From assembly GCA_016185705.1 (NCBI GenBank), contig JACPMZ010000003.1, positions 74,900 to 138,899 of the forward strand: a DNA stretch of 64,000 nt. Direction: 5' to 3'. The notes beneath the pieces were generated by a model. It worked only from the letters and a program-made list of their open reading frames with translations. It was not told the origin of the DNA and searched no databases. The position numbers were made by a program, and so were the translations under genes. This document shows positions 12,778-53,110 of this stretch, in pieces (position 1 is the first letter of the stretch; each line of letters starts with the position of its first letter). This stretch comes from Candidatus Woesearchaeota archaeon (GTDB lineage Archaea; Nanobdellota; Nanobdellia; Woesearchaeales; UBA10216).

Positions 12778-12779
12778 TT

Positions 12780-31687: not shown

Positions 31688-31692
31688 TAACC

Positions 31693-32052: not shown

Positions 32053-32090
32053 CTTATTGGCAGGACTGTTTTTAAAGGTTTCGGAAACGG

Positions 32091-32234
32091 GGTGAAGTCA
32101 AGTTAAGTGGCAAAACCGTCGCATCCTTCCCTGATTTTTTTCTCCCCCCCTTAAAAAATAAGGGGGGGAGAAAAAAATCAGCCAAGCAGGCATCGGCAAG
32201 CTCAGGATTGCAGGACACATAACTTGGCATTACC
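32091..32234. mobile_element. MITE-like element copy A (144 bp): TIRs ggtgaagtcaagtt / aacttggcattacc, central (C)7/(G)7 palindromic hairpin 32131-32182, flanked by 9-bp TSD cggaaacgg (32082-32090 and 32235-32243)
   Basis: direct observation of TIR, TSD and near-identity to copy at 52841-52982. Confidence 0.75.
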
Positions 32235-32351
32235 CGGAAACGGACTCTGCCGGAACTAAGAAACTTTCGCCATTCAGAAGTCCCGTAGAATAGGCAGAGC
32301 CCGAAAATTTACTGCCTGTGCAGCTGGGCTGGTATCCTGCCTTCCCTCTGC

Positions 32352-33362
32352 TCATGTAAAGATTTTTGATACCGCCAATGTCTGCTCAAGTTTTGGCAGC
32401 ACAATTCTTTGGGAAGCAGCAACCGCAGCGAAACACCCCACATGAAAGAGGTTGCTGCCGCCGATGCCCCTTTTGCCGTTGAAACGCACCGGGCGCCCGA
32501 TATTTGCATCAAAGCCAACATACCCGATTCTGTGGTGGCTTTCAATTTTTGGTTTGATGCCAAACATCTTAGCCAATGCTTCAATTGGAGTCCAGCCCTT
32601 ACTGGCGAAGAACATTTCAGCCAAAGCTTCCCTGAGTTCAGGAGAGCCTGCAACCATAAGCACGCGGTCATCCTCCATGAAATCAGGAAGCGTTAATTCT
32701 CCGCTTGGATTGATATTGTATTCGTCTCTGTCTAACGGCACAAAACTCGTATAAGGCGTTCCTGGCGCAGGCACGTTGCCTTTTCTAACGTCTTCAATAT
32801 GCAATCTGGGAACCTCCAGGCCATTGTATCTGCCTTTTCCAACAGCATCCCATTCATCGTCATCATCAATCGGCGCGAATCCATAATGGTGAGCACGCCG
32901 TTCAGCATCAGGAATCCAACAGAGCGCATTGTCGTAAGATTCACTAACTGCTTTTTCAAGCCCCTTCGGAGTTACCAGAGAACCAGCTGAATGCCATACC
33001 TCATAAAACCTGCCATAGGGATAGCGCTGTCCATGACATTCCACAGTATTTGTATCAATCCCTGCTCGCATAATCGCCTCACGAACCTCAGGATTAGCCA
33101 TTGCCTGTATTGCCATCGGCATGTCAGCTACTCTCAAGCCGTGTTCTGCAGCTAATATATCTGCCTTTTTTCGGGCCTTGGCATAGCCAGTCCTGCCTGT
33201 AACCGCTGCGAGCACACGGGATTCCCCTTGAACAATTATTTGCGGCATTTTGAAGCGAACTCCATTATCCTGTATTCTTACAGGCAAAGTGCAGGCAGTA
33301 TTTAAGGATTGCGGTTTTATAATCACCGCATAGTAGTGGAATAAAAACAGACTGCGGCGCAC
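32352..33362 (-). CDS. conserved hypothetical protein (possible true start MPQIIV at 33248)
   Basis: long ORF with protein-like composition; no confident family assignment. Confidence 0.5.
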   Translation of the reverse strand: MRRSLFLFHYYAVIIKPQSLNTACTLPVRIQDNGVRFKMPQIIVQGESRVLAAVTGRTGYAKARKKADILAAEHGLRVADMPMAIQAMANPEVREAIMRAGIDTNTVECHGQRYPYGRFYEVWHSAGSLVTPKGLEKAVSESYDNALCWIPDAERRAHHYGFAPIDDDDEWDAVGKGRYNGLEVPRLHIEDVRKGNVPAPGTPYTSFVPLDRDEYNINPSGELTLPDFMEDDRVLMVAGSPELREALAEMFFASKGWTPIEALAKMFGIKPKIESHHRIGYVGFDANIGRPVRFNGKRGIGGSNLFHVGCFAAVAASQRIVLPKLEQTLAVSKIFT

Positions 33363-33508
33363 AACCCCTCCATGTCTTAATGCGTTCTCCGGAACAGAAA
33401 AATCTTCATGTGGATTATAAAAACCTTCTTGAAACTCAGTAACGCTCTGCTGTTAACGAATGAATGGCCACATGCAATCGTATGAACATACTTAATATAT
33501 AAAATTTG

Positions 33509-34456
33509 TCACTCCCTAACCTCAGCGTCATCAATAATTCCGTCTGAGTCAAGGTCAACGCCTTCAACAACCTTTGCAGCTATTTTTTTGTTTCTTACGT
33601 TGCCTGCGCTAATCTCCTTAAAATGCTTTAAGAAAGCAACGATGGCAGCCCTTGTTCCTGAGTAGCGCTTGCCTGCAACAACCAAAACGCTTTTTTCGCT
33701 GTTGAACGGAGATTTTGCCTTAACAATGATGCCTGACTCATCGCTTGGGTAAACTGAATCTGATACAGTGCTTCTGATGCTCCAGTTCTCTGCCTTATCA
33801 AACCTTATTGGAAGCTTCTGGTTAACCGCGCCTGTAACTTTGTTGACAATCGGGCCGCCTATCAGAATTAAATGATTGCCTTTCAATTCCTGCTCCTGCA
33901 CTTCAGTATCAAGCTTAACGTAAAGCTTCGGAACATAATTAAGGAATGTGCCCAGAAACAACGCAAGGTCCATGCCGTAATAGCCGTCGCGGGAACGCGC
34001 TTTGTCAGGCCCGTGCGGGTCAGGGCTGCCAACTATAATTAATGCGCTGAGCTTTCCGTTATCTATGAAAGGATGCAGAAACTCAGAGTCTGACTTCAGC
34101 TGAATCTGCGTGGGCTCAAGCTCCCTGAACTTAATAACTACTGCGGGCTTCTCAACAGCGTAAAACTTAGCAACAGCGCCCTGCCGCGTTTCCTGCCTGA
34201 CAACCTTAACGATGCCTGCGCTATGCAAGTTGCGGATGTGATAATAAATTTTCTGCTCATGAACCTTAAGGGCTTTAGCTATTTCTACCGGATACATCGG
34301 CTTTGAAGAAAGCAGCTTGATTATTTTTATGGCCAGCTCAGAGCTGACGCTGCCTGCATTCTTCGCATCCACCTCGCATGCAGGAAGCGAATACACCCCA
34401 TCTGCCCTTTTGTCAACCGCAAACATAGCAACCACTTGTCTAAACTGCCTGAGCAT
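33509..34456 (-). CDS. ArsR-type winged-helix transcriptional regulator fused to uncharacterised C-terminal alpha/beta domain
   Basis: MYPVEIAKALKVHEQKIYYHIRNLHSAGIVKVV wHTH; C-terminal LIIVGSPDPHG...LILIGGPIVN. Confidence 0.6.
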   Translation of the reverse strand: MLRQFRQVVAMFAVDKRADGVYSLPACEVDAKNAGSVSSELAIKIIKLLSSKPMYPVEIAKALKVHEQKIYYHIRNLHSAGIVKVVRQETRQGAVAKFYAVEKPAVVIKFRELEPTQIQLKSDSEFLHPFIDNGKLSALIIVGSPDPHGPDKARSRDGYYGMDLALFLGTFLNYVPKLYVKLDTEVQEQELKGNHLILIGGPIVNKVTGAVNQKLPIRFDKAENWSIRSTVSDSVYPSDESGIIVKAKSPFNSEKSVLVVAGKRYSGTRAAIVAFLKHFKEISAGNVRNKKIAAKVVEGVDLDSDGIIDDAEVRE

Positions 34457-34505
34457 TCACTCAAAGCGCTGTTACCCTTTTCACCAGCCAACTTCCCCAC
34501 TAAAC

Positions 34506-34552
34506 TGCTTTTTTCCCTCCCCTAAAATTTAAGGGGGAGGGAAAAAAGCAGC
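34506..34552. repeat. palindromic hairpin of CCCTCCC...GGGAGGG family (ctgcttttttccctcccc TAAAATTTAA gggggagggaaaaaagcag) followed by MITE right-end-like motif gcttggaaacttacc
   Basis: perfect stem; shared flanking motif with 25224 copy. Confidence 0.8.
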
Positions 34553-34673
34553 AATCCAAAAAGCAAGCACGGCGCTTGGAAACTTACCACTTTAAATAAA
34601 TTTTTATCTACGTTAAAAAATAATTATAAGTACATATTTAATTCTTTCCATTTTAAAACAGGAAAGTTTTTAT

Positions 34674-36080
34674 ATGGCTGCATTCATAAACAAAGCCATG
34701 ATCAAAAAATTTCTGGCAGTTTCAGCAGTAGTGGCCATGCTGCTGCTAATCCCTTATGCAATCGCCCAGTCGGATGACGATTCAAATAAACCCCGGGAAA
34801 GATTAAATGCAGTGAAAGACAGGCAGGACAGTCCAAACGCAGCAGCCGCCCCTGCCAGGGAACGGCTTGCAGAAGCGCTGAACAAGAGAAACGAAGCGCT
34901 GCAGAAGGAAGCGTTTGCAAAGCTCAACGATGCAGACAAAACCAGATTCAGGAATCTGGACAGCAGACGGCTGGAGAAAATCTCGGCATTAGATGCGGAC
35001 AAAGTCAGCAAATTAAAAGCTGTCAGCAAAGACAGGCTGAGAGTTGTCGCTGCACACGCTGACAGACTGGCAGGGCTTGAACAGGCAGACCTTGCAAAAG
35101 CAGCACAGCTTGACAGAAGCAGGATAAAAGAGCTTGCTGCGCTGAGCCCTGAAAACGCAGCAGGCAGATTAAAAAATATACGCATAGTAAAAGCAAATGA
35201 GGATTTCAAAATCAGGCCTCTTGCAACAGGCAGGATTACAGCTGCTGCTGCTGCGCACAAAAGAATTCAGGACAAAAAAGAGGAACTGCGCGCTGCATAC
35301 GCTCAGAGAATTGACAAAGTCAAGGCAGCCAAGGAAAAACTCAGAAACTGCGAAGGGGATTGCGATACTGTCAGGCAGGAAGCAATTGACAGAGCCAGGG
35401 AAGCAGCGCTGAATGTTATAGAAAGACTAACCAATCACATAGAAAAAATCAAGGAAAGAGTCAGCACTTCGCAGGACCTGAGCGAGGAAGAGATAGCTGA
35501 CAGAATTGCAAAGCTCGACAGCTTGCTTGAAGAAGTGTCATCTGTTCAGGCAGCAGTTGAAGCTGCAGCAACAAAGGAAGAATTGAATGCCGCTGTAAAA
35601 GAGCTGCGACAGATAGTTGCGAAAATAAAGATAAAAACAAATGCTCACGCGCAGGGGCTCGTAAGGGCAAGGGTAATCGGAATAGTTCATTCAGGAAATG
35701 TAATTGAAAAGAAACTTGACTGCTCGCTCGCAGCTTTGGAGGAAGAAGGCGCAGACACAAGCGAAATAGATGTATTGATGGACGAATACAGCAGACTGAT
35801 GGCAGCAGCAAGGGAAAAAGCCAAAGAGGCAAAAGACGTATTTGAAAAGGAAGATGAAGCTGCGGTGGAAGCAGCCAGGCAACTAATCATTGAAGCAAGA
35901 GAATCAGCAAAGCAGGCGCACAACCTGCTGCCTGAAATCAGGGCAGCCATAGCAAAGCTTGGCGGTGGCGGAGCTGCATGCGAGGAAGCGCAGGAAATAG
36001 CAATTGAGGCGGAAGCTGACGCGGAGACTGAGCAGGAAATAGAAGCGGGAGACGAAAAAAATGAAACTGATACTGATTAG
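34674..36080 (+). CDS. secreted coiled-coil protein rich in A/E/K/R/L repeats with acidic C-terminal tail
   Basis: signal peptide MIKKFLAVSAVVAMLLLIPYAIA; heptad-like low-complexity helical sequence. Confidence 0.65.
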   Translation: MAAFINKAMIKKFLAVSAVVAMLLLIPYAIAQSDDDSNKPRERLNAVKDRQDSPNAAAAPARERLAEALNKRNEALQKEAFAKLNDADKTRFRNLDSRRLEKISALDADKVSKLKAVSKDRLRVVAAHADRLAGLEQADLAKAAQLDRSRIKELAALSPENAAGRLKNIRIVKANEDFKIRPLATGRITAAAAAHKRIQDKKEELRAAYAQRIDKVKAAKEKLRNCEGDCDTVRQEAIDRAREAALNVIERLTNHIEKIKERVSTSQDLSEEEIADRIAKLDSLLEEVSSVQAAVEAAATKEELNAAVKELRQIVAKIKIKTNAHAQGLVRARVIGIVHSGNVIEKKLDCSLAALEEEGADTSEIDVLMDEYSRLMAAAREKAKEAKDVFEKEDEAAVEAARQLIIEARESAKQAHNLLPEIRAAIAKLGGGGAACEEAQEIAIEAEADAETEQEIEAGDEKNETDTD

Positions 36081-36288
36081 CTTATTTGCTGTAATGCTGG
36101 CTGCGGCATGCACGCCCTCTGGGCCAGCAGAAGCGCCTGTATCAGAAATCACACCCCCTGAGACAACTGCCACAGAAGCTGACATACAGTCAGTGAGCGA
36201 ACCAACTGCAGAACAAATAGAATCAGAGCTTGACACTTCTGAACTGGATGCCATAAACGATGATTTGGACCTGATGATTGTGGAGTAG
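36061..36288 (+). CDS. small secreted/lipobox-like acidic protein (75 aa), overlapping preceding gene by 20 nt
   Basis: MKLILISLFAVMLAAAC then P/T/E-rich acidic sequence. Confidence 0.4.
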   Translation: MKLILISLFAVMLAAACTPSGPAEAPVSEITPPETTATEADIQSVSEPTAEQIESELDTSELDAINDDLDLMIVE

Positions 36289-36451
36289 CAAACTGTCTGA
36301 ATCTTCACCCATCCCTATTCTAAGCTGCCCGCATATTCGTGCAGCACTCTATTTCCGCTCCCTTCAAAAGTTAAGGAGGCGGAAACAGAGCGCAGAAGGA
36401 AAATGTTATGGAGATGCGCAAGGGAGCTCGCAGAATAATAACAAGCACAAA

Positions 36452-36724
36452 TCAAAGCAGCGTCCTGATATTATCAAGATGGTCTGCCATGTCAGAGCCC
36501 TTCTTTGTCAGCGCAAGGAGCTTTAGTCTGCCCTGCTTCTCAAAATTCACCAACCCGGCTTTTTCCATCTCCTGCAGAATCTTTACGACATGGGAATAAG
36601 TGCAGTCAATAGTTTTTGCGAGCGATGAAGCATAAACCCCGCTCTTGGCGTTACGCAGCTCAACGAGCATCATCGCCGGCTTCTCGCGAAAAAATACGTT
36701 AAAAATCTCCGGATTCTCCATCAA
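36452..36724 (-). CDS. small winged-helix transcriptional regulator (ArsR/MarR-like)
   Basis: YASSLAKTIDCTYSHVVKILQEMEKAGLVNFEKQGR HTH + wing. Confidence 0.6.
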   Translation of the reverse strand: MMENPEIFNVFFREKPAMMLVELRNAKSGVYASSLAKTIDCTYSHVVKILQEMEKAGLVNFEKQGRLKLLALTKKGSDMADHLDNIRTLL

Positions 36725-36841
36725 TGTTTACCCCCTCAACTCCAACCATTATTTTTTAGCATATATATAAATGTTTCTGTGCAAAAAATTTCTCCGACGG
36801 CAACACAGCCTGATTCAACAAAGCAAAACTCCGCGTTCCAA

Positions 36842-37615
36842 CTACTCCCAACTCTTTAATGCATCCTGCTCTACAAAATGCAGCTCTCCCGGAACAACGA
36901 GGCTGTGCGGCTGCCTGCCAAAATTTAAGCGCCTTAATTCAGCAGCAGTGCCTGACTTAATTGCGAAATCATCGCTGCCAACCCTCGCAACGCCAACGCA
37001 AAAGGTTTTTTCAGTAAAAACGCTCTGCTGCCGCCTTGACTCTATTTCAAGCAGAATGTCAATGGCTTCCTTCACAGTCATAAACTTATCCTGCTCCGGC
37101 TTAAGGTCAAGCATTAAAAGAGTGTGAAGCCCAAGGATTTTGTTCTGCCTAATGACTTCGTAAGAAGTCTCAGGCCGAAAGCTTTTATCCGGATAAGGAA
37201 TGGAAGTTGTTTTACCGAACTTGTAAATCTGCAAGCCGGTAATGCCGACAGCAGTCAAGATTGAAGCGTTGTGAATCACCTTAAATTTAACGTTATTTTT
37301 TTTGCAGCGAAGCATGATGTCAATATGAGTGGTTGCTCCGAACGGATCTCCAATAACGAGCAGGGCAACGTCCTTAACTTTAGCAGCCTCAATGAGCTCA
37401 TCATCCTGCTCAACAAATCTGCGGCCAACAACCTTAATTTCCCTGCCATAAAACTTTTCCAATGAAGAAACGCTGCAGTCAATCAAGCTGGTATAGTTTT
37501 CCAGATAAACCTCATCGCAGCTCTTAATTGCTTCCAGCCCCTTAGCCGTAATGTCTTTCTCGTCATTCAGCCCGATGCCGATTAAGTAAAGTGTCATTAC
37601 AGCAGGCAACATCAA
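36842..37615 (-). CDS. dphB: diphthine synthase (diphthamide biosynthesis methyltransferase; likely start MTLYLIGIGL at 37603)
   Basis: tetrapyrrole-methylase-fold signature LYLIGIGL...GDPFGATTH typical of Dph5/DphB. Confidence 0.85.
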   Translation of the reverse strand: MMLPAVMTLYLIGIGLNDEKDITAKGLEAIKSCDEVYLENYTSLIDCSVSSLEKFYGREIKVVGRRFVEQDDELIEAAKVKDVALLVIGDPFGATTHIDIMLRCKKNNVKFKVIHNASILTAVGITGLQIYKFGKTTSIPYPDKSFRPETSYEVIRQNKILGLHTLLMLDLKPEQDKFMTVKEAIDILLEIESRRQQSVFTEKTFCVGVARVGSDDFAIKSGTAAELRRLNFGRQPHSLVVPGELHFVEQDALKSWE

Positions 37616-37644
37616 ACCATTTATAAAAGCTTTTGAATTACGGC

Positions 37645-37782
37645 CTTATTGAAAAGTTCACGCAGCCTCGCTCTGTTGCTGGCTTCCCTTCCTACTTTTT
37701 CCCTCCCTTAAATATTCAAGGGAGGGAAAAAGCAGGAAGAACGGCGGGATAAACGCAGCGGTAAAGTGAACTTTTTTCAATA
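37645..37782. mobile_element. MITE-like element, subfamily 2: TIRs ccttattgaaaagttcac / gtgaacttttttcaatag with central hairpin 37688-37738 (cttcctacttttttccctccc TTAAATATTCAA gggagggaaaaagcaggaag)
   Basis: 17-bp inverted termini; interior homologous to 53029-53110 copy. Confidence 0.6.
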
Positions 37783-37849
37783 GCACCGGAATTACAAATG
37801 TATTTTAGACCAAGGAAAAGGAAAGAGCAGCGTTTATTTGATTGAACTG

Positions 37850-38284
37850 CTATCTGCTCGCTTCTGCCAATGAAACGCGCTTTAACTCTTTTACCCTGTC
37901 AAAATCAGCGTCGTCTGTGATTATTTCCTTTTCGCCGTGCAGGATTGCTGTTGCGGCGTGAAGGGCGTCGCGGGGGCGCAGCGCACATTTGATTGCAAGT
38001 TCTGCCGCTTTTTTTGCAATAGGAACAGTAACATCCTGTGCACTTAAATTTGGCAAGCTTAAAACAATCCCGCCTTTCTCAACAGCCTCCTTTAAGGGCA
38101 TTGATGCCCTGCAAATCCAAGTTACTTCATCCCATGTTAAAATTGACGTGGAAGCTGCAATGCGCATATCAGCAATTTCTTGGAGAATATGCTTTGATTG
38201 AACGGCTTTTGCGTCACTTAAATCGCCTATTGCCGCCGCGTAAATAAATACATTAGCGTCTAAGTAAACCATATTCTTCCTCAT
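37850..38284 (-). CDS. vapC: PIN-domain toxin VapC
   Basis: MVYLDANVFIYA PIN signature; downstream of AbrB-type antitoxin. Confidence 0.85.
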   Translation of the reverse strand: MRKNMVYLDANVFIYAAAIGDLSDAKAVQSKHILQEIADMRIAASTSILTWDEVTWICRASMPLKEAVEKGGIVLSLPNLSAQDVTVPIAKKAAELAIKCALRPRDALHAATAILHGEKEIITDDADFDRVKELKRVSLAEASR

Positions 38285-38522
38285 ACTGTTCGTTGAGCCT
38301 CTTCTTAATCCATTTAACAGGATCGCCTTTTATTTTTATCCTGCGGCTTGAACTGCAGAATTCTTCAACAATCTGCTGTGGTGTTTTTGCAGGCTTCACA
38401 ACCATCTCATCGCCTTTTACTTCAACAGTCACTTCACTCCCTGCACGAAGCCCAAGCTGTTCCCGAATGTCCTTTGGCACAACAAACTGGCCGCGTTCGC
38501 CAATTGCCCTTTTAACCAGCAT
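38253..38522 (-). CDS. vapB: AbrB/SpoVT/MazE-family antitoxin VapB
   Basis: RGQFVVPKDIREQLGLRAGSEVTVEV swapped-hairpin motif. Confidence 0.75.
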   Translation of the reverse strand: MLVKRAIGERGQFVVPKDIREQLGLRAGSEVTVEVKGDEMVVKPAKTPQQIVEEFCSSSRRIKIKGDPVKWIKKRLNEQYEEEYGLLRR

Positions 38523-38703
38523 CTTAAACCACCTTTCCAGCAGCCACAGCCGTTAAAATTCATACCTGCTAATCAGAAAAAGTATGAATTTATATATAAA
38601 GTTTTCTGATTTGATTGGCTTTAATTTTTACTATCAGTTAGTAGTTAAAATAGAAAGATTTATAAAGGGGCGGCGCAGCATGAAACAAAGAGGGGGTATC
38701 AGA

Positions 38704-40076: not shown

Positions 40077-40191
40077 ATACGGATGCAAGCTCGCACATTC
40101 TGTTCTTCTGCAATCTTTACTGATTCTTGTTCTGCTGAAAACAGAACATTTTCACAGTTATACCATTGTGGCGGCGATGATTAAAACAGAG

Positions 40192-41901: not shown

Positions 41902-41903
41902 TG

Positions 41904-44613: not shown

Positions 44614-44690
44614 TCATCTCAACCCCTTTTCCCAGAATAATTGGCAGATTAGTATAAAATTCTATTGTTTTTTGGTAAAGCCAGGTTAAG

Positions 44691-44940
44691 TGCCAAAACC
44701 GTGCGCACACTGCGCAGATTTTTTTCTCTTTTCAGAAATTCAGCTCTGTTCTTTACTCCGCGCTTCATCTCCACCTCCCTTAATTTTTGAAGGGAGGTGG
44801 AGATGAAGCGCAATGGCAGCTTAAGCATGCGGTTTTTCGGAGATACCCAGCTTAGAAAGGAAAAAAACAGCCAAGCAGGCATCGGCAAGCTGAGGATTGC
44901 AGGGCATGCAAAACTTTACATTACTGCCTGCCCTGATTAT
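44691..44940. mobile_element. degenerate/composite MITE-like copy C (left arm ggtaaagccaggttaagtgccaaaaccgtgcgcacactgcgcag; right arm cagccaagcaggcatcggcaagctgaggattgcagg...acattact) interrupted by a different hairpin (44757-44810, cgcttcatctccacctccc TTAATTTTTGAA gggaggtggagatgaagcg)
   Basis: arms homologous to copies A/B; central segment replaced/inserted. Confidence 0.5.
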
Positions 44941-45021
44941 AGTCAGAACATAGTGCTAAAAGAAAAAGTTTAAATACAATCAGTGCAATAAAGCTGGCGG
45001 GGTTCTAAAGAGGAAGGCGAA

Positions 45022-45330
45022 TTGAGAAGAACATTTTTGCAATTAAGGGAGCACATCCTGAGGGCATTGCTTGAAGGCCCTCTGACAATAAACCAGGTTG
45101 CCTGCAGGACAGGCATCAACTGGCGCACTGCAAAGCACCATCTCGAATTCCTTAAGTATAGAGGCATGGCAGCCGAGGTAGTAAGCTCATCCTATGTTAA
45201 GATATACAGGATAACAGAACAAGGCGGAAGCAGTTTCCCTGTGAAGCAGGCAGTAAAACGCGAGGCATTAGAAGTTGAGATTACACTTAATGGGAAGTCC
45301 CGCGAACTTGAAAAGGTGGAAATAAGATGA
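45022..45330 (+). CDS. winged-helix transcriptional regulator (ArsR/TrmB-like), 4-bp overlap with GT4 gene
   Basis: LTINQVACRTGINWRTAKHHLEFLKYRGMA HTH + wing. Confidence 0.55.
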   Translation: MRRTFLQLREHILRALLEGPLTINQVACRTGINWRTAKHHLEFLKYRGMAAEVVSSSYVKIYRITEQGGSSFPVKQAVKREALEVEITLNGKSRELEKVEIR

Positions 45331-46523
45331 GGGTGCTGATGTTTGGCTGGGAGTTCCCGCCTTTCAGCTCAGGCGGCCTGGGGTCAGCGTGCTATGGCCT
45401 TGCAAGAGCATTGAGCAGGGAGAATGTTGACATAACATTTGTGCTCCCGCAGGCAAACCCCATTGAATATGATTTCATGAAGGTAATAGCTGCCAACATA
45501 CCAAGACTCAAGCTGCGCGGCATAAAGTCCATGATAAGCGGATATGCAACTTCGCATGAATATGAGCAAAAAATTTTTCAGATGAAAATGAAAGCAGACC
45601 CTTCACTGGAAATTTACGGCCAGAACCTTATTGAAGAAGTTGAGAGGTATGCGAACAAAGCGGCGGAAATTGCCAGGGAGGAGGCGCACGACTTAATTCA
45701 CGCGCACGACTGGCTTACATTCAAAGCAGGCATAGCAGCAAAAAAAGCGTCAGGAAAACCGCTGGTTGTGCACGTGCACGCAACCGAATTTGACAGGACA
45801 GGAGGGCATGGAGTGAACCAGTACGTGTATGACGCGGAAAGGGAAGGCATGCATGCTGCAGACGCAATAATCGCTGTCAGCAACTACACCAAATCAAAGA
45901 TAATCCGCTACTATGCTGTAAGCCCTGAAAAAGTGCACGTTGTGCACAACGCCATTGACATTGACAGCACAGCAGCAAACCCGCAGCACAAAACAGGCAA
46001 GGTGGTGCTGTACCTTGGAAGGGTAACGCTGCAGAAAGGCCCGGACTATTTTGTTGACGCTGCGAAAAAAGTGCTGGAAAAAGAGCCTGATGCAAGGTTC
46101 ATTATCGCAGGAAAAGGCGACATGGAAACACGCCTTATCAACAAGGCAGCCAGCCTCGGCATATCTGACCGGGTGCTGTTCACAGGATTTTTGCGGGACA
46201 GCGACATAGCAAAGGCATACAGCATGGCAAGCTTGTATGTAATGCCCTCAGTTTCAGAGCCATTCGGAATAACTCCGCTGGAAGCAGCAGGCAACTGCAC
46301 GCCTGTTATGATATCAAAGCAGTCAGGCGTTTCAGAAGTATTAAACCACTGCCTTCGCGTTGACTTCTGGGACGTCAATGAAATGGCAAACAAAATACTG
46401 GCAGTGCTGCATCACAGGGAGCTGCAGGAAGCTCTTACAGAAAACAGCTTCCGGGAAGTCAGCCGAATGAGCTGGGCAAGCTCAGCCAAAAAATGCATGC
46501 AGGTATATGAGGCAGTGAAATGA
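45327..46523 (+). CDS. glycosyltransferase family 4 (retaining GT-B)
   Basis: EPFGITPLEAAGNCTPV (E-x7-E) motif; GT-B two-domain architecture. Confidence 0.8.
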   Translation: MRVLMFGWEFPPFSSGGLGSACYGLARALSRENVDITFVLPQANPIEYDFMKVIAANIPRLKLRGIKSMISGYATSHEYEQKIFQMKMKADPSLEIYGQNLIEEVERYANKAAEIAREEAHDLIHAHDWLTFKAGIAAKKASGKPLVVHVHATEFDRTGGHGVNQYVYDAEREGMHAADAIIAVSNYTKSKIIRYYAVSPEKVHVVHNAIDIDSTAANPQHKTGKVVLYLGRVTLQKGPDYFVDAAKKVLEKEPDARFIIAGKGDMETRLINKAASLGISDRVLFTGFLRDSDIAKAYSMASLYVMPSVSEPFGITPLEAAGNCTPVMISKQSGVSEVLNHCLRVDFWDVNEMANKILAVLHHRELQEALTENSFREVSRMSWASSAKKCMQVYEAVK

Positions 46524-46572
46524 GGCAGAGGAGCCAGCCAGGGCACAAAAGCTGACGACACCCAAAAATGAG

Positions 46573-46689
46573 GCTATGCCAGCTTTTGCGTGTTTCGCTG
46601 CCCGCTTTTTATTCCCTCCCTCGCAAATTAAGGGAGGGAATAAAAAGCGGGCGAGGCAGCGGAAAAAACACACTTAACTTGAAATTACC
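46573..46689. mobile_element. MITE-like copy D (reverse orientation) with CCCTCCC hairpin 46597-46653, flanked by 13-bp direct repeat acccaaaaatgag (46560-46572 / 46687-46699)
   Basis: right end cacacttaacttgaaattacc = reverse complement of family left TIR; exact flanking duplication. Confidence 0.65.
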
Positions 46690-46750
46690 CAAAAATGAGA
46701 AGATTTAAAAATTGCGGAATACACATTAAAGCACTTAAAGAGGGCGGGGT

Positions 46751-47953
46751 ATGGTAAGCGTATGCTTTTATTTCCAGGTGCATCAGCCAGAGCGGATAAG
46801 AAAGTACTCTGTCTTTGAGGTCGGGAAGAGCGCTGACTATTTCTTCCATCAGAAGAACAGGGAAATAATAGAACGGGTTGCAAAGAAATGCTACCTGCCG
46901 GCAAACGCGATAATTCTGGAACAGCTGAAAAAGCATGGCAGGCTTAAAGTTGCCTATTCTTTCAGCGGCGTCGTGCTTGAGCAGCTGGAGAAATACGTTC
47001 CCGAAGCAATCAGCTCTTTCCAGAAGCTTGCAGACACAGGAAAGGTTGAAATACTCGACGAGACCTACTACCACTCGCTGGCATTCCTTTATTCAAAAAA
47101 AGAGTTTTTTGAGCAGGTGAGAATGCACAGGCGCAAAATAAGCGAGCTGTTCGGGCAAAAGCCAAAAGTGTTCAGGAATACTGAACTGACGTACAACAAT
47201 GAGCTGGCAGCGACAGCAGCAGAGATGGGATACAAGGCAGTGCTGGCAGAGGGAGCAGACCACATACTCGGCTGGAGAAGCCCGAATTTCGTCTATAAGC
47301 CGGTAACTGCAGACATAAAGCTGCTGCTCAAGAACTACCGGCTCTCAGACGACATAGCATTCAGGTTCAGCAACCATGACTGGAAGCACTGGCCCCTTAC
47401 CGCAGAAAAATTCGCGTCCTGGGTGAACAGCATAAACGGGAACGGAAACTGCGTAAACCTGTTCATGGACTATGAAACATTCGGCGAGCACCAGTGGCCT
47501 TCAACAGGCATATTCAATTTCCTGAGAGCAGTGCCAGGCGAAATACTAAAGCATCCGGACAACGATTTCAGGACGCCAACTGAGATTGCAGAATTCAAGC
47601 CAGTCGGAGAGCTTGACGTGCCATTCACAGTCTCGTGGGCTGACGTGGAGAGAGACCTGAGCGCGTGGACTGGAAACAAGATGCAGCAGGCCGCACTGCA
47701 GAAAATATATGAAATGGAAGCCGCAATAAGGGGAAGCGGCAGCAAAAAGCTTATTGAAAACTGGAGGAAGCTCCAGACATCAGACCACTTCTACTACATG
47801 TGCACCAAGTGGTTCAATGACGGAGACGTGCATAAGTATTTTAACCCCTACGACTCGCCGTATGATGCGTTCATAGCATACATGAACATAATAAGCGACA
47901 TCAAGCAAAAGCTTAAACCAATTGAGGAAGCAATACCAACAATAATGAGGTGA
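46751..47953 (+). CDS. glycoside hydrolase family 57 (alpha-amylase/alpha-glucan-processing)
   Basis: FQVHQPER (HQP motif) and GH57 N-terminal barrel signature. Confidence 0.8.
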   Translation: MVSVCFYFQVHQPERIRKYSVFEVGKSADYFFHQKNREIIERVAKKCYLPANAIILEQLKKHGRLKVAYSFSGVVLEQLEKYVPEAISSFQKLADTGKVEILDETYYHSLAFLYSKKEFFEQVRMHRRKISELFGQKPKVFRNTELTYNNELAATAAEMGYKAVLAEGADHILGWRSPNFVYKPVTADIKLLLKNYRLSDDIAFRFSNHDWKHWPLTAEKFASWVNSINGNGNCVNLFMDYETFGEHQWPSTGIFNFLRAVPGEILKHPDNDFRTPTEIAEFKPVGELDVPFTVSWADVERDLSAWTGNKMQQAALQKIYEMEAAIRGSGSKKLIENWRKLQTSDHFYYMCTKWFNDGDVHKYFNPYDSPYDAFIAYMNIISDIKQKLKPIEEAIPTIMR

Positions 47954-47957
47954 TTTT

Positions 47958-48281
47958 ATGGGAAATAGAAAGAATGAGGAGCCGGTCAGCAAAAACATTA
48001 CTGAACTGGCAATACTGAGGTTCATGGAAGCGCCGAGCGGCAAGCAGTTTGTGCTGAATGACGGACGTCTGCTGAAAAATATCAAGGAACTGGCTGATGC
48101 GCTTGAGCACATGAGCGATGACGTATTCAAGCATCATGTTGCTCCCGGAAAAAACGATTTCAGCATCTGGGTGAGCGAAGTGCTGCAGGAAAATGACTTG
48201 GCAGACGACTTGACTGCTGTTGACAATCAGTTAAAGGCGCAATTGGCGGTGCTGAAGCACATAGCCAAGAAAGCATTTTGA
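47958..48281 (+). CDS. paralog 1 of a three-member tandem family of small proteins with conserved F..HH(V/A)..G(K)NDF..WV core; function unknown
   Basis: FKHHVAPGKNDFSIWVSEV; 5-nt gap after GH57 gene. Confidence 0.55.
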   Translation: MGNRKNEEPVSKNITELAILRFMEAPSGKQFVLNDGRLLKNIKELADALEHMSDDVFKHHVAPGKNDFSIWVSEVLQENDLADDLTAVDNQLKAQLAVLKHIAKKAF

Positions 48282-48282
48282 G

Positions 48283-48597
48283 GTGAAAAAAATGAAAAAA
48301 GACAAAGCGAATGAAGCCAGAAAGCTTCTGAGCAACGTAGAGCACTGGAAGGCATTCTGGGTGAACAAGGGACCCATATACAGGAATATTGCGGAGTTTG
48401 GGGCCAAGGTGGGAAACCTGAAGCCAGCCCAATTTGCGCACCACGTAAACAAAAGCAAGAACGACTTTGCAAAATGGGTGGATGAGGCAATCGGAGACAA
48501 GGTGCTTGCGAAAAGGCTGCGCAGCCTGAAAACAAAGCAGGCAATAGCCAGAGTGGTATCAGAGCGGGTAAGCGCGCTGAAAAAGCTTGCAAAATGA
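48283..48597 (+). CDS. paralog 2 of tandem small-protein family
   Basis: FAHHVNKSKNDFAKWVDEAIGDKVLAKRL; starts 2 nt after paralog 1. Confidence 0.55.
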   Translation: MKKMKKDKANEARKLLSNVEHWKAFWVNKGPIYRNIAEFGAKVGNLKPAQFAHHVNKSKNDFAKWVDEAIGDKVLAKRLRSLKTKQAIARVVSERVSALKKLAK

Positions 48598-48950
48598 ACC
48601 TGAGGAACAACGTAAGCCCTGAACACAGGTTTTACTGCGCTGACGGCAGCACCTTCCAAAACCTGAACGAGCTTGCATCCGGGCTGAGAAAAATGCGGCC
48701 CGAAGTATTCCAGCACCACGCAAACGCAGGCAACAATGATTTCCGCAACTGGGTGCGGGATGTGTATGGCAACAAACAGCTTGCAGACCAGATTGCCCGG
48801 GCAAAACTCAGCCTGGAAGCATCGCAGATAATAGCCAGGAAGCTGAATACAACCGGGAAGCGGGCAAAGCGCGCAATGAAAAATGAAAGACTGCATAAAA
48901 AAATCCACAAACACATAATGCGGCTTATGAGCAAATACAGGAAAAAATAA
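48594..48950 (+). CDS. paralog 3 of tandem small-protein family with extra basic tail
   Basis: FQHHANAGNNDFRNWVRDVYGNKQLADQI; ATGA overlap with paralog 2. Confidence 0.55.
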   Translation: MNLRNNVSPEHRFYCADGSTFQNLNELASGLRKMRPEVFQHHANAGNNDFRNWVRDVYGNKQLADQIARAKLSLEASQIIARKLNTTGKRAKRAMKNERLHKKIHKHIMRLMSKYRKK

Positions 48951-50885
48951 TTACTCTTTCAGTTCCCGAATTACTTCTACAACACCCGCAGAACACGGAT
49001 TTTTGGTTACATGGTCTGCCACTGCCTTAAGCTCCTTATGCGCATTTGCCACCGCAATCCTGTAACCAGGAACATTAAAAAGATCCACGTCATTCTGCGC
49101 GTCACCCATTATGATAGTTTTCTCAGGGTCAATATTCAAGTGGTTTAAAGCCATCTTTGTTCCAGCACCCTTATCAACACCACTCGGCAAAATCATGAAT
49201 TCACCAACATTATATTTGTAAGCAAGATGCTTGCTCAAAGGCCTGAGAATCTTCCTGACCTTTGCACTCTCCTTCCGGGGAACGCTGATGATGTTGAGGC
49301 CTGAGGTATGCTTTATCCTGGCGCCGGCAATCAGCCTTGCAGCGCGCCTAACCGTATTTGAAGAAAAAGTAATGAGCTGGTCTTTGGCAGGAATGTAAAT
49401 AACTGCGCCATTCTCTGCAACAATGCACTTCCACACGGGATATTTCCTGTACAGCTTGTGGACATACCTGAAAGGCCTTCCTGTCACGAGCACCAAAGGA
49501 ACTTTGAGCGATTTCAACTCCGCAATGACCTTGGCATTGACTTTCCCGGGAGCGTCTGTAATTGTCCGGTCAAAATCGGTTATAAAAGCATTGACATCCT
49601 TCAGATTCATCATCCTGGGCCCCCAATCGCTTTTGCTGCCGAGAATCCTGTGGTAAAGCATAATGTGCTCCTCAACTATCCTGCTCATTGAGAATTTTTC
49701 CTGCACAATCCTCAAGCTTTCCTGCCCCATCCTCTCATTGAGAGAGCTGTTGGTGAGAAGCTTTACAATAGCGCCAGCAGTCTCCCTGATGTTATCCACG
49801 CCCACCAAAAACCCATTAACCCTGTCCTGTATCTGCAAAGGAATTCCGCCTGCATCAGTCCCGACAACCGGCTTTCCGCAAGCCATAGCCTCAGTAACCG
49901 CAAGCCCAAAGCCCTCAATCTTTGACGTCAAAGCAGCAACATCAGCACACGCATATACAGAAGGCAGCTCATCATATGGAATTGTTCCTGTAAAAACAAT
50001 ATGCTGCTGCAGCTTCAACTGCCTGATGAGAGTGTGCACAGCATCCTCATACTTCTTGCGGATATCGGACATCTTGCTTGTCAATGACCTGCCGCCAACA
50101 AAAACCAGCTTTGCATCCGGAACTTTCCTCAGGATATAGGGCATTGCCCTGATAAGCTGCTCATGGCCGCTTTTGATGTCAATCCGCTGCGCAGACAATA
50201 TTATTTTGCACCTTTCCAAACCAAATTTTCTCTTAAACTCCGGATTTGGCCTTGTGGGAACAAACAATTTTGTGTTGGCAAGAGGGTAAAGAAGAGCTGT
50301 CTTTTCCCTTGGAAGCCCTGCCTTAACAGCATTCCTGACATATTCCGGCGATGAAAAGACAACACAGTCGTATTCAACCATCTGGTTTATCAGGAATTCC
50401 TTCAAATGCCTGGGCATAGCGCTGATGAAAGGAATGTGCCACCTGAGAAACAACGGAGTTCCGCGGGGAATGCCCTTGTACAAATACAGCAACTGGAAGT
50501 CATGAATGTCAACAATCTCAGCAGGCTCCTTCTGCAAAAGCTCATCCAGCTGCTCGGCAATAGCTTCATTAATCTCCATGTATTCCCTGAAGCCGGGCAT
50601 GTCGATTGCTTCCCTGTCAAAGCCGCCAAAGCCGTGGCACGCATTCCAGACGCTTTCCTTGAATTTCACAAAGCCCTCTATAAGCTCATCCTTTAAAGGC
50701 TCTTTCGGAACCCGGTAAACATTTATGCCCTTAACCTCCTCAAACGCCTCAGCACCGGAAGGCCGCAGGTGAATCTCAGCAACCTCGTGGCCGCGCTTCT
50801 GCAGCTCCCGGCCAAGATTCAGAAGATAAGTGGAAACGCCCCCGATGTTCGGATAAAAAGACTGCGAAGCAAAAAATATTTTCAT
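48951..50885 (-). CDS. bifunctional-type GT4 glycosyltransferase fused to C-terminal HAD-IIB phosphatase domain (sucrose-phosphate-synthase-like / glycoside-compatible-solute synthase-phosphatase architecture)
   Basis: GT4 EGFGLAVTEAMACGKPVV; HAD motif I ITDFDRTITD and motif IV GDAQND in C-terminal 230 aa. Confidence 0.75.
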   Translation of the reverse strand: MKIFFASQSFYPNIGGVSTYLLNLGRELQKRGHEVAEIHLRPSGAEAFEEVKGINVYRVPKEPLKDELIEGFVKFKESVWNACHGFGGFDREAIDMPGFREYMEINEAIAEQLDELLQKEPAEIVDIHDFQLLYLYKGIPRGTPLFLRWHIPFISAMPRHLKEFLINQMVEYDCVVFSSPEYVRNAVKAGLPREKTALLYPLANTKLFVPTRPNPEFKRKFGLERCKIILSAQRIDIKSGHEQLIRAMPYILRKVPDAKLVFVGGRSLTSKMSDIRKKYEDAVHTLIRQLKLQQHIVFTGTIPYDELPSVYACADVAALTSKIEGFGLAVTEAMACGKPVVGTDAGGIPLQIQDRVNGFLVGVDNIRETAGAIVKLLTNSSLNERMGQESLRIVQEKFSMSRIVEEHIMLYHRILGSKSDWGPRMMNLKDVNAFITDFDRTITDAPGKVNAKVIAELKSLKVPLVLVTGRPFRYVHKLYRKYPVWKCIVAENGAVIYIPAKDQLITFSSNTVRRAARLIAGARIKHTSGLNIISVPRKESAKVRKILRPLSKHLAYKYNVGEFMILPSGVDKGAGTKMALNHLNIDPEKTIIMGDAQNDVDLFNVPGYRIAVANAHKELKAVADHVTKNPCSAGVVEVIRELKE

Positions 50886-51040
50886 GCTACCAGCTCAGAA
50901 AGACCCCGCTATCATTTACATCAATGATATTGATTAGCATGTTTTAAAGAAAAACTAAAGTTATAAATACTTTTCTGTTCAGCGAGCGCAGTAGAAATTC
51001 CTGCTCTTTATTCCTTCTGTCTTCGCAACAAAACCATTTC

Positions 51041-51176
51041 TCTCTGCGCCCTCCCCCTTCGAAAGTTAAGGGGGAGGAAATAGGGCGCAGTTGCAATCAA
51101 ACAGCAAACTATATGCGGGGGCAGATATGCGGCGTGCGCAGGCAGCGGGAACAAACACACTTAACTTAAAATTACC
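51041..51176. mobile_element. MITE-like copy E (reverse orientation): imperfect CCCTCCCCC hairpin 51044-51090 and right end gcgcaggcagcgggaacaaacacacttaacttaaaattacc
   Basis: homologous to copy D over hairpin-to-terminus segment. Confidence 0.5.
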
Positions 51177-51360
51177 ACAAAAAAGTGAGCTGTAAGGTTA
51201 GCGTCACCTGGCATCTGTTTAATTTGTAACTCTGAGCGTTTAGGACAAAACAGGTGGTTAGGTATGATTAGATTATCTGGTGGAAACTCACCACAGATTT
51301 AGTGCTTTCCCAACAAAGTAGAGTATCAAAATGATAATCAAGATACCAACCAAATCCGTT

Positions 51361-51615
51361 CTACCGTTTTTTGCCTTTGCCAAGCTTAAGCTCATCCAAT
51401 TCCCTCCAAATCTTCTTAAGTTCATTTTGCGTATTTATCTGCGCCTTTAATACTTTTATGTCATTCTCGTGTTCTTCTAAGTTAAGCCATAATGCTAAAA
51501 TTAAGGTCAAAATACCAATTACAAAAAAGGTTTGATTAGATATTTGCCCACCAAAAAAACTTACAGCGAATCCAATGACACCAAGAGCAATATCTCTCGA
51601 ATCCATACTTCCCAT
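51361..51615 (-). CDS. small 2-TM membrane protein with C-terminal coiled-coil
   Basis: IALGVIGFAVSFFGG...FFVIGILTLILALWL then charged helix. Confidence 0.4.
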   Translation of the reverse strand: MGSMDSRDIALGVIGFAVSFFGGQISNQTFFVIGILTLILALWLNLEEHENDIKVLKAQINTQNELKKIWRELDELKLGKGKKR

Positions 51616-51713
51616 AGGTTAAATAGCATTTTTATAGGTTTTCATTAGGTGACGTTTATTTTACAGCTCACAAAAAAGAAAAGTATAAAAACAGATAAAC
51701 CAGCAATTATGCC

Positions 51714-51884
51714 ATGACAAAGCCACCAAAAGGAGCTGTAACAGCACAGCAGTTTTTAAAAGCGTACCTGGCTATGGAACGGCCAACCACAACGCACCTG
51801 TTCTACACCAAAGGGGTGCTTGACTTTCTGGTGGGAATGATAATAGGAGTTGTTATAGGGATAATTGTTGCTAACTTTGTCTGA
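51714..51884 (+). CDS. possible 56-aa tail-anchored small membrane protein (below 60-aa ORF cutoff)
   Basis: MTKPPKGAVTAQQFLKAYLAMERP...GVLDFLVGMIIGVVIGIIVANFV. Confidence 0.3.
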   Translation: MTKPPKGAVTAQQFLKAYLAMERPTTTHLFYTKGVLDFLVGMIIGVVIGIIVANFV

Positions 51885-51914
51885 TTACAGAAATCTCTGA
51901 TGCGCTTGGTTCGG

Positions 51915-51965
51915 CTTCCTGCTTTCCCCCTTCCTGACAAATTAAGGGAGTGAGAAAGCAGGAAG
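51915..51965. repeat. hairpin of the family (cttcctgctttccccc TTCCTGACAAATTAA gggagtgagaaagcaggaag)
   Basis: 12-bp outer stem + degenerate core. Confidence 0.6.
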
Positions 51966-52031
51966 CAGCAATAAAAAGATTCAAATGCATGCGCAGACGC
52001 GAGGCAAGCCCCGCCGCACAGAGGGATACGC

Positions 52032-52328
52032 TCAAACCAGCACCAACAGCCCGGAACTACCGCAATAAAAATAAAATTTGTTTATGTTGCTAAAATACTT
52101 TCCCAGGCGCCTGAGCTGCTTCCTTGCCTTGATTATGCGGTGCGAGCACTTGACTTCATACACGTCAACGCTGCTGCCTTTTCTTGCTATAATGTCTGCT
52201 TCTCCAATCAGGCGCTTGTCGGAACGCACAGGGACATTTAGAGAAACCGAATCGTAATCTTCCTTAATGCGCTCGCACAATTCAATGACGTAGCGGTCGT
52301 GTTTGCTCAGTTTATTGGCAATCACCAA
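52032..52328 (-). CDS. small PD-(D/E)xK nuclease-fold-like protein (98 aa)
   Basis: GEADIIARKGSSVDVYEVK fits D-x(n)-E-x-K restriction-endonuclease-like core. Confidence 0.45.
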   Translation of the reverse strand: MVIANKLSKHDRYVIELCERIKEDYDSVSLNVPVRSDKRLIGEADIIARKGSSVDVYEVKCSHRIIKARKQLRRLGKYFSNINKFYFYCGSSGLLVLV

Positions 52329-52358
52329 AAAGCTTTATGGATGTCTGAATATTTAAAT

Positions 52359-52793
52359 TTAACTGAGCGGCGGTGTTGCGTTTACAACCCCATCAAGCTT
52401 GCTGATAAAAATATCGCTGGCTGGATTGATATTGCCTTTAAGGTTAGCCGGTAATATTCTGACTGCCTGATACTCCCCACCCGTAACATTTACGCCAATG
52501 ACCAGCTGCGTGAAATCTGCGCCTGTACTGGAAGTGTTGTAAAAAACAATATAGTACTGCCTTCCGTCAATAGCGCCTGGCGTTGAAAATATGCGGCTGT
52601 AGCCGTCCTGCGCATTAGCTGCCAGAACCAATTCCGCCTCAACAGCATCTGCCAAGTCCTCAGCAGACTGCCTGGTGCGGCCATCACTGACAATAATAAA
52701 GCGGTCTGACATAACTGAGAGGAAAGCGATAAGAAAAAGCGTCATAACAGCAATAATCATGGCTGTTTCATTGGCGCTCTGGGCATTCCTCAT
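52359..52793 (-). CDS. possible class III signal peptide (archaeal type IV pilin-like) protein
   Basis: N-terminus MRNAQSANETAMIIAVMTLFLIAFLSV resembles archaeal prepilin signal (charged residues, A/Q, then hydrophobic helix with early E). Confidence 0.45.
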   Translation of the reverse strand: MRNAQSANETAMIIAVMTLFLIAFLSVMSDRFIIVSDGRTRQSAEDLADAVEAELVLAANAQDGYSRIFSTPGAIDGRQYYIVFYNTSSTGADFTQLVIGVNVTGGEYQAVRILPANLKGNINPASDIFISKLDGVVNATPPLS

Positions 52794-52840
52794 AGCAGTT
52801 ATTCTGCTGTTATGGGTTTATAAAATTATGGAAGCGGGGG

Positions 52841-52982
52841 TAATTTCAAGTTAAGTGGCAAAACTGTCGCACACTGCTCTGATTTTTTTCTCCCCCCCCT
52901 TAAAAAATAAGGGGGGAGAAAAAAATCAGCCAGGCAGGCATCGGCAAGCTCAGGATTGCAGGACACACAACTTGACATTACC
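52841..52982. mobile_element. MITE-like element copy B (142 bp): TIRs (gg)taatttcaagtt / aacttgacattacc, central (C)8/(G)6 hairpin 52880-52929, flanked by 10-bp TSD ggaagcgggg (52831-52840 / 52983-52992)
   Basis: direct observation; ~90% identical to copy A. Confidence 0.8.
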
Positions 52983-53028
52983 GGAAGCGGGGCGCCATTG
53001 GAATGCTCATGCAAATTCGTGCCTTCAG

Positions 53029-53110
53029 CTTTCCTGATTTTCACCTCCCTAAATATTAAGGGAGGGGAAAACCAGGAAGAGCGGCGAGATAAAGGCAGCG
53101 TCTGAAACGC
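53029..53110. repeat. subfamily-2 hairpin copy (ttcctgattttcacctccc TAAATATTAA gggaggggaaaaccaggaagagcggcgagataaaggcagcg) immediately downstream of MITE copy B
   Basis: homologous to interior of 37645-37782 element. Confidence 0.6.

Follow-up and report, generated by a model that had tools for sequence, protein, structure and literature searches.

We investigated a 64,000-nt stretch of the genome of a Candidatus Woesearchaeota archaeon (GCA_016185705.1, contig JACPMZ010000003.1, positions 74,900 to 138,899 of the forward strand; hereafter the window, numbered from its first letter), which carries a family of short palindromic elements. The genes flanking the elements encode a PF05693 glycogen synthase, GT4/GT5 transferases, a GH57 protein, and a TrmB/S-layer-type helix-turn-helix (HTH) protein; the glycogen synthase is 100% identical to the NCBI protein MBI2663833.1 (Candidatus Woesearchaeota archaeon). 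The elements comprise copies A, B, C, E46, and E51 and a second subfamily, S37 and S53 (Table 1). An earlier reading of the sequence, the original prediction, had taken them for transposable elements of the miniature inverted-repeat type (MITEs). They are very likely to be just that: non-autonomous elements derived by deletion or replacement from an archaeal IS6-like insertion sequence (IS).

Copies A and B, which are identical in 132 of 145 aligned columns, both start with GGT(G/A)A(A/T)(G/T)TCAAGTTAAGTGG and finish with CACA(T/C)AACTTG(G/A)CATTACC. A terminal consensus, GGTAAT(T/G)TCAAGTT..., is present at both ends, and the 19-nt end motif GGTAATTTCAAGTTAAGTG occurs at six sites in the window at three or fewer mismatches, compared with none in 100 dinucleotide shuffles. 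The left end of A resembles that of the parent IS described below (GGTGAAGTCAAGTTAAGTGG), its right end reads ...CACATAACTTGGCATTACC, and its centre is a 23-bp C7/G7 hairpin. The nine bases on either side of each copy are exactly alike, CGGAAACGG around A and GGAAGCGGG around B. None of the copies contains a listed open reading frame (ORF) of at least 80 aa, and inspection of the ORF list places every copy between ORFs. The copies also fold far better than shuffled sequences (z of −6 to −9; −9.2 for A as RNA). These results agree with the original prediction as to intergenic position, identity (about 90%), length (about 143 bp), terminal inverted repeats, and the exact duplication flanking A. 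For B, its right end at 52982 and its exact flanking repeat hold, while the start moves from 52841 to 52839, and the tenth G of the repeat as then written (ggaagcgggg) is ambiguous with the first G of the element itself. As a side observation, A and B lie in the same orientation, each just upstream, by a few bases, of a TATA-like box belonging to a leftward gene (minus strand, CCTTTAAAAAC and ATTTTATAAAC, at 32040–32090 and 52793–52838, respectively).

Table 1. Positions of the elements, target duplications, and hairpins in the window, and of the leader stem-loops on contigs carrying a full-length IS
Feature	Positions	Strand	Remarks
MITE copy A	32091–32234	+	144 bp; ends, RNA fold, and flanking duplication
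Duplication of A, CGGAAACGG	32082–32090 (left); 32235–32243 (right)		9 bp
MITE copy B	52839–52982	+	144 bp; 91% identity with A
Duplication of B, GGAAGCGGG	52830–52838 (left); 52983–52991 (right)		9 bp
MITE copy C	44674–44925	+	252 bp; A/B-type arms, 82–92% identical
MITE copy E46	46572–46689	−	118 bp; reverse orientation, IS-left-type end on the right
Partial copy E51	51038–51176	−	one good end, 51158–51176 (GGTAATTTTAAGTTAAGTG)
S37, second subfamily	37643–37786		palindrome of about 144 bp; fold z −8.0
S53, partial copy of the S37 subfamily	53029–53110		without outer ends
Stand-alone hairpin	25227–25271		no IS-type ends
Stand-alone hairpin	34505–34551		divergent intergenic region
Stand-alone hairpin, weaker	36347–36386		between convergent genes
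Stand-alone hairpin	51913–51962		between convergent genes
Stand-alone hairpin	62312–62362		20-bp stem
IS leader stem-loop	L094, 2020–2070		
IS leader stem-loop	L093, 108–145		
IS leader stem-loop	L092, 2945–2992		

The remaining copies are preserved to different degrees. C, for which bounds of 44691–44940 had been given and are corrected here, sits in the divergent promoter region between the glycogen synthase and HTH genes; its apex consists of about 129 bp (44729–44857) of other sequence with a different 24-bp hairpin, in place of the A/B apex. Both of its ends are degenerate and no target duplication was found in its flanks; C is an older copy. E46 has one perfect end and a degenerate left end (GGCTATGCCAGCTT), and is flanked by an exact 9-bp duplication, CAAAAATGA, at 46563–46571 and 46690–46698. 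Its reverse orientation and flanking repeat, and its location apart from a start at 46573, had been recognized correctly; the repeat had, however, been read as 13 bp, acccaaaaatgag, which takes in the element's own terminal ACC on the right and, on the left, an ACC that is there by chance. E51 has 35 nt in common with E46 at 89% identity and carries a hairpin at 51042–51087. It had been listed (51041–51176) as a copy in reverse orientation or degenerate, which stands, with only one good end; no second end was found. S37 differs from A and B in its ends (..CTTATTGAAAAGTTCAC / GTGAACTTTTTTCAATAG..), has a 22-bp CCCTCCC/GGGAGGG hairpin, and has a direct repeat, GAATTAC, on both sides. S53, which begins 47 bp past the right end of B (46 nt between), is 82% identical to S37 over 83 nt, in line with the second subfamily that had been proposed at 37645–37782 and 53029–53110.

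Related elements were also found outside the window. When species-representative genomes were scanned with the end motif, most matches were coding or due to chance (e.g., Bacteroides SusC-like genes), and only five loci were real; in a metagenome scan, roughly 15 of 61 loci were relevant. Three complete small elements, L004, L010, and L017, lie in the metagenome-assembled genome (MAG) of a second Woesearchaeote, RIFCSPHIGHO2_02_FULL_45_15; L085 is on a metagenome contig from the same Rifle source, and L057 and L059 are elements from metagenomes. When the 9 nt flanking each element were compared, exact 9/9 matches were obtained for A, B, E46, L085, and the full-length IS in L094, and partial matches for L010 (8/9) and for L017, L057, and L059 (7/9 each); C, L086, L068, and L092 showed none. 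The chance level of this comparison is about 2.25/9, and that of one exact 9/9 match is 4e-6. The duplications of A, B, and E46 are three different sequences, and across the family the duplicated 9-mers are mutually unrelated, apart from a resemblance between the A and B targets (GGAARCGG) that is not seen in other members. These flank matches indicate that a 9-bp duplication is the signature of the family. The duplications are reproducible at other copies (E46 and L085), a check named in the original prediction, but their proposed range of 9–13 bp narrows to 9 bp throughout the well-preserved copies. In addition, two contigs from a Methanosarcinales MAG terminate within an element (L005, 3092–3145; L006, 1–55), as does a 1.7-kb Logan contig that is 98.7% identical to the window (L001, in a copy at 1–79). 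The IS family may reach into Methanosarcinales, or these may come from a contaminated bin.

The parent is an IS of 897–911 bp with terminal inverted repeats of roughly 20 bp and a single ORF for a 263-aa transposase, found on contigs of Woesearchaeota and Nanoarchaeota. L094 contains a complete 911-bp copy, GGTAATGTCAAGTTAAGTGGG...CACACAACTTGACATTACC, with an exact 9-bp duplication, CTCTTTCTG. L093 carries an 897-bp copy with variant ends (GATGAAGTCAAGTT) and an 8-bp repeat, and L092 a 909-bp copy without a repeat. On the metagenome contigs L040, L042, and L045, the same end (GGTAATTTCAAGTTAAGTGGGAAA) is followed by the ORF after about 100 nt. The search for an IS with matching ends, which the original prediction had suggested, was thus positive (L094, and also L093, L092, L040, and L042). 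The left end of B matches the left end of the IS, and its right end, CACACAACTTGACATTACC, is the same as the right end of the L094 copy at 19 of 19 nt, so the MITE keeps both of the distinct IS ends; its interior is unrelated to that of the IS. Beside these results, we observed that each full-length IS has a leader stem-loop of 12–16 bp that ends at a GGAG ribosome-binding site. The stems differ in sequence and are conserved in position, and may constitute a conserved control on transposase translation.

It is also conceivable that the copies never moved as small elements and are instead full-length IS that each lost their interiors independently, in situ. Internal-deletion derivatives do arise, as the 453-bp L057 still contains the 3' part of the transposase gene. 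However, A, B, and C share the same non-IS interior of about 100 bp at three loci, and the target duplications of A and B differ. Deletions arising separately would not all end up with one and the same foreign interior, which refutes this scenario for A, B, and C and leaves it scarcely credible overall.

We analyzed the transposase using one reconstruction and three real homologues (P0149, P0144, and P0121), all of 263 aa. The catalytic domain matches Pfam PF13610 (DDE_Tnp_IS240) with 67 bits (cut-off, 27), and the motifs CxxC...CxxC, DETY, TDG, and E...K.R are present. An N-terminal zinc ribbon was recognized by NF050000 (IS1/IS1595 zinc ribbon; cut-off, 28) in two of the three real proteins (32.3–32.8 bits), with P0144 just under at 26.6 bits, and in the reconstruction the InsA-type ribbon model PF03811 scored 24 bits, just under its cut-off of 26. 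The best whole-protein model was NF033587 (IS6), which aligned end to end with the three real proteins at 113–115 bits. An IS1-family parent, which had first been suspected from the GGTAATG ends and the 9-bp duplication, was rejected on this comparison, as NF033558 (IS1 transposase) gave 40–53 bits, below its cut-off of 100. Both ends of the L094 copy read GGTAATG, that is, they start with GG and have G at position 7, and there is a single ORF; the length is slightly above the IS6 range of 700–900 bp. The 8-bp duplication of IS6 elements was seen only at L093, with 9 bp at L094 and the well-preserved MITEs. From these sequence comparisons, the parent is best called a divergent archaeal IS6-like clade, a relative of the IS6 family rather than a certified member. 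Most of the 460 transposase homologues sit on contigs about 1 kb long, a pattern that a multicopy IS would be expected to give, and the few named ones are labelled Woesearchaeota or Nanoarchaeota. A sequence search of the PDB with the transposase gave no match.

We compared the window with two syntenic relatives, GCA_053533915.1 (L027) and GCA_053533375.1 (L030), whose glycogen synthases are 68–69% identical to that of the window and whose gene order is common with it from the TP-methylase gene to the DUF5752 genes. E46 is absent at the orthologous site in both. There, the glycosyltransferase (GT) and GH57 genes overlap by 7 nt, whereas in the window they are 227 nt apart, separated by an insert of about 175 nt (46525–46699) that contains E46; the conserved sequence GAAGATTTAAAA...GGTAAGCGTATGC picks up directly past E46 and its duplication. 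The GT ORF encodes 398 aa in the window compared with 418 aa in the relatives. The gene (45327–46523) stops at a TGA where the relatives read GGA, inside an AAATGAG motif (46518–46524) that recurs at 46566–46572 and 46693–46699 as part of the E46 duplication, and a remnant of the old C-terminal coding sequence persists, out of frame, downstream of E46. C is likewise absent from L027, in which only about 60 nt lie in the middle of the glycogen synthase/HTH region, and conserved promoter-proximal blocks flank C. A and B are located where synteny with the relatives is broken. Inspection of orthologous sites, which had been proposed as a check, therefore found E46 missing from both relatives and C from L027.

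These comparisons bear on whether the copies might instead be conserved, non-mobile regulatory palindromes, for example operators or terminators passed on by descent at fixed positions between genes. Such a role would suit the exclusively intergenic location of the copies and the placement of A and B next to TATA-like boxes, and the T-runs, present on either strand, could halt archaeal RNA polymerase. However, copies are absent at orthologous sites in syntenic relatives, they are flanked by 9-bp duplications of unrelated sequence, and their ends are those of a transposase-bearing IS. Moreover, C, B/S53, and the hairpin at 34505 lie in divergent promoter regions, in which a terminator has no role. 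In the hairpins, on both strands, the T-run precedes the C-arm, 5' of the stem, and the A-run follows the G-arm. This is the reverse of an intrinsic terminator and, together with the copies in divergent promoter regions, indicates that the hairpin is not simply a terminator. A promoter/terminator scan likewise showed no enrichment, with 30 terminator-like structures compared with 27.2 expected. The regulatory explanation is thus largely refuted, and we consider it very improbable.

The MITE reading suggests the following course of events. A transposase supplied in trans would bind the retained ends of roughly 20 bp, and the element of about 120–250 bp would be inserted at staggered cuts 9 bp apart. 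Gap repair would then yield the 9-bp duplication; the duplication itself is observed, and the chemistry is presumed from DDE transposases in general. Copies survive only between genes, and at least one insertion has remodelled an operon, since E46 parts the GT and GH57 glycogen genes that overlap in the relatives. The interior is not IS-derived and forms a long palindrome, at the apex of which a T-run, C-tract, AT-loop, G-tract, and A-run make up a hairpin.

Several points weigh against this account. The norm for duplications of the IS6 family is 8 bp (PMC7986276), compared with 9 bp here, and the transposase scores below the curated IS6 cut-off (NF033587, 125 bits). IS6/IS26 elements are thought to move via cointegrates that are later resolved by homologous recombination (PMC7986276, PMC6807381). 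Simple insertions of an element of 144 bp are not easily obtained by this route, and the IS6 MITEs in ISfinder number only two (PMC7986276, PMC6807381). No autonomous copy lies in the window, and among the NCBI homologues the named ones belong to other assemblies, with no homologue placed in the assembly of the window by its protein accession number. C, E51, and S53 have no duplications. To the left of E46, about 48 nt (46525–46562) are also missing from the relatives. This segment terminates in ...GACGACACC; after it comes AAATGAG, which also stands before it at 46518–46524. It may be what is left of an earlier insertion at this position. Finally, because the relatives are only about 68% identical in protein, their empty sites show absence and give no precise excision boundary. 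Nevertheless, in every defining feature that could be examined the elements act like classical MITEs: they are short (under about 500 bp) and without coding capacity, are bounded by terminal inverted repeats, carry exact 9-bp duplications, are matched by a parent IS, and are absent at orthologous sites, which supports the identification first made in the original prediction. Its further claim that no transposase lies in the window agrees with a tblastn search with the cognate family, which found none in the 64 kb, and the trans-acting transposase that it predicted elsewhere exists at the level of the family, though as yet not for the host genome. The prolific MITE family suggests that the zinc-ribbon clade may make simple insertions, which would fit its IS1-like traits.

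The hairpin behaves differently from the rest of the element. Its design, T-run / CCCTCCC / AT-rich loop / GGGAGGG / A-run, is matched by 12 loci in the window, eight of which are pyrimidine-first hairpins with a stem of at least 12 bp; counting all hairpins with such stems, there are 12 in the window compared with about one in shuffled sequences. The pyrimidine arm comes first in 8:0 cases in the window and in 5:0 in L004, L058, and L085, all from the second MAG or the metagenome behind it (L058 is the L004 site sampled again, so that four cases are independent). No hairpin of this design was found in the relatives L027 and L030; the loci L092–L094, which bear the IS, also lack the pyrimidine-first C-tract type. 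The hairpin is common to subfamilies with different ends (A/B, E46/E51, and S37), also stands alone in the window (Table 1) and in L004 and L085, and is missing from some otherwise matching MITEs, namely L010 (compared with L017) and L004 (compared with L085). In L085, the module is flanked by TTAG microhomology at its junctions. At the site orthologous to the stand-alone hairpin at 34505, the spacer in L030 is about 100 nt shorter and without a hairpin, and the L027 site orthologous to 51913 is pyrimidine/purine-rich with no significant fold. The hairpin is modular and behaves as a separable unit. The original prediction had placed it at the centre of the element, which is correct for A and B, but it is not an invariant part, as it also occurs alone and is absent from some MITEs.

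These observations raise the question of whether two systems are involved, with the hairpin cores being an independent repeat family resembling repetitive extragenic palindromic (REP) sequences, spread by another enzyme or by recombination, and the MITEs having merely captured one. Hairpins of the same design alone at five window sites and in L004 and L085, their sharing among subfamilies with different ends, the matched pairs with and without the module, the replacement of the C apex by another hairpin module, the uniform polarity, and the absence from L027, L030, and, for the pyrimidine-first C-tract type, L092–L094 would all follow from this. On the other hand, no candidate enzyme was found, and the stand-alone hairpins have no consistent flanking signature. 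Palindrome-stimulated deletion, for which the TTAG at the L085 module is suggestive, explains the hairpin-less MITEs equally well, and the stand-alone hairpins may be old MITEs whose ends have decayed. We therefore leave them as either decayed MITEs or a separate repeat, and regard two separate systems as unlikely while giving the idea some weight.

Rfam 15 gave no match at the gathering score in the whole window, and a tRNA search found nothing. An alignment of the hairpins has eight consensus pairs with a covariation term of about zero, the alignment being disrupted by indels. The possibility that the hairpins at 25227 and 34505 were co-duplicated with paralogous downstream genes was rejected, as the two 468-aa proteins are unrelated. 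Archaeal RNA polymerase terminates at oligo-T, and by analogy the T5–T8 runs on both strands of the hairpin could stop it. The distance between the left end and the MITE hairpin is similar to that between the left end and the leader stem-loop in every full-length IS. As a speculation, it may descend from, or substitute for, the IS leader structure; the positional match is observed, whereas homology or a common function would be a further step.

Among known elements, those described here resemble the IS6-family MITEs MITEHarch3 and MITEBth2 in ISfinder, which have both ends and no ORF (PMC7986276), but they measure 58–252 bp and are numerous, whereas the listed ones are of 227 and 336 bp. The parent resembles the archaeal IS6-like elements ISH14, ISH15, ISPfu1/5, and ISC774 in its DDE_Tnp_IS240 domain, its E...K.R and W...F signature, its single ORF, and its ends, which start with GG and have G at position 7; ISH15 and ISPfu5 also give 9-bp duplications (PMC6807381). 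It differs from them in the length of its transposase (263 aa compared with 211–237 aa), and from IS6 in scoring under the NCBI cut-off and in a duplication of usually 9 rather than 8 bp. Zinc fingers have been described in IS6 only for long clostridial clades (PMC6807381, PMC7986276), whereas the parent here has an N-terminal ribbon of the IS1/IS1595 type. Its GGnnnTG ends, 9-bp duplication, and InsA-type zinc ribbon (NF050000 and PF03811 matches) recall IS1, although GGnnnTG ends are common to IS1 and IS6 (PMC6807381). Unlike IS1, it has a single ORF instead of InsA/InsB with a frameshift, and its catalytic domain is closer to that of IS6.

Escherichia coli IS1 also starts with GGTAATG. Sulfolobus SM1–SM4 and other archaeal MITEs are likewise short, bounded by terminal inverted repeats, intergenic, non-coding, and mobilized in trans by a resident IS; SM1–SM4 differ from the present family in having other parent IS families and a host phylum outside DPANN, and we know of no equivalent of the C-tract/G-tract hairpin core in any of these MITEs. 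The Correia elements of Neisseria and the enterobacterial repetitive intergenic consensus (ERIC) or intergenic repeat unit (IRU) sequences are also about 100–150 bp long, fold into a single long hairpin, are intergenic, and can alter the transcription of their neighbours. These are bacterial, the duplication of Correia elements is TA and not 9 bp, and to our knowledge they have no identified cognate transposase; for the elements here, a parent IS family is identified. The stand-alone hairpins of 35–55 nt resemble REP sequences and bacterial interspersed mosaic elements (BIMEs) in being intergenic and imperfectly conserved, each being near-perfectly self-complementary. They differ in that no Y1 REP-associated transposase was seen and in that the copies bounded by terminal inverted repeats have duplications, which REPs do not.

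In the searchable literature we found nothing on MITEs in Woesearchaeota, and neither Woesearchaeota nor Nanoarchaeota is named in the main text of a 2026 survey of archaeal IS elements. The biology is ordinary, a known kind of element in a little-studied DPANN host, and Woesearchaeota gain from it a defined IS/MITE pair with known ends, duplication length, and transposase family. As MITEs break assemblies (L005, L006, and L001 end inside copies), knowledge of the family makes it easier to close and curate DPANN genomes. Insertions in promoter regions, together with the split of the GT–GH57 pair, make these copies candidates for lineage-specific rewiring of carbon-storage genes. Prolific MITEs from an IS6-like parent also bear on whether archaeal "IS6" elements transpose like IS26.

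A more far-reaching interpretation links two ideas, that the hairpin is under selection or mobile in its own right and that the parent clade bridges IS1 and IS6; we put it forward tentatively, as one that is unlikely to hold. The hairpin could act as a bidirectional oligo-T stop, an insulator, or a cruciform recognized by a protein. If the module is functional, the MITEs would distribute a cassette through a reduced DPANN genome. The parent clade, in turn, may be such a bridge; it joins an IS1-type zinc ribbon, GGnnnTG ends, and 9-bp duplications to an IS6-type catalytic core. If it, unlike IS26, makes simple insertions efficiently, this would explain why there are many MITEs here when IS6 elements rarely spawn them.

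Comparison with the relatives also revealed larger differences. A 2.8-kb segment (48951–51700), containing E51 and the gene for a 644-aa GT4/HAD-phosphatase fusion (sucrose-phosphate-synthase-like), is absent from L027, in which the flanking genes are 78 nt apart; it is a gene gain next to a MITE end. Between the DHH/RecJ-like and HTH/S-layer genes, which are adjacent in L030, the window has about 6.7 kb (26796–33362) with a 1393-aa ORF without a Pfam match, three smaller ORFs, and MITE A. Farther away, a block of low G+C content (9507–13175; 35–37% compared with about 47%) encodes an Eco57I-like N6 DNA methylase, an AccI-like restriction endonuclease, and a protein with an EVE domain. Direct repeats of 63 nt with 95% identity (9507–9569 and 13113–13175) lie on its two sides, and it has the appearance of a restriction-modification cassette that was acquired horizontally and has att-like repeats. 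In addition, four to six tandem units of about 315 bp (60–80% alike) lie inside a long coding region at 2956–4558, a pattern typical of repeated Ig-like or surface-protein domains.

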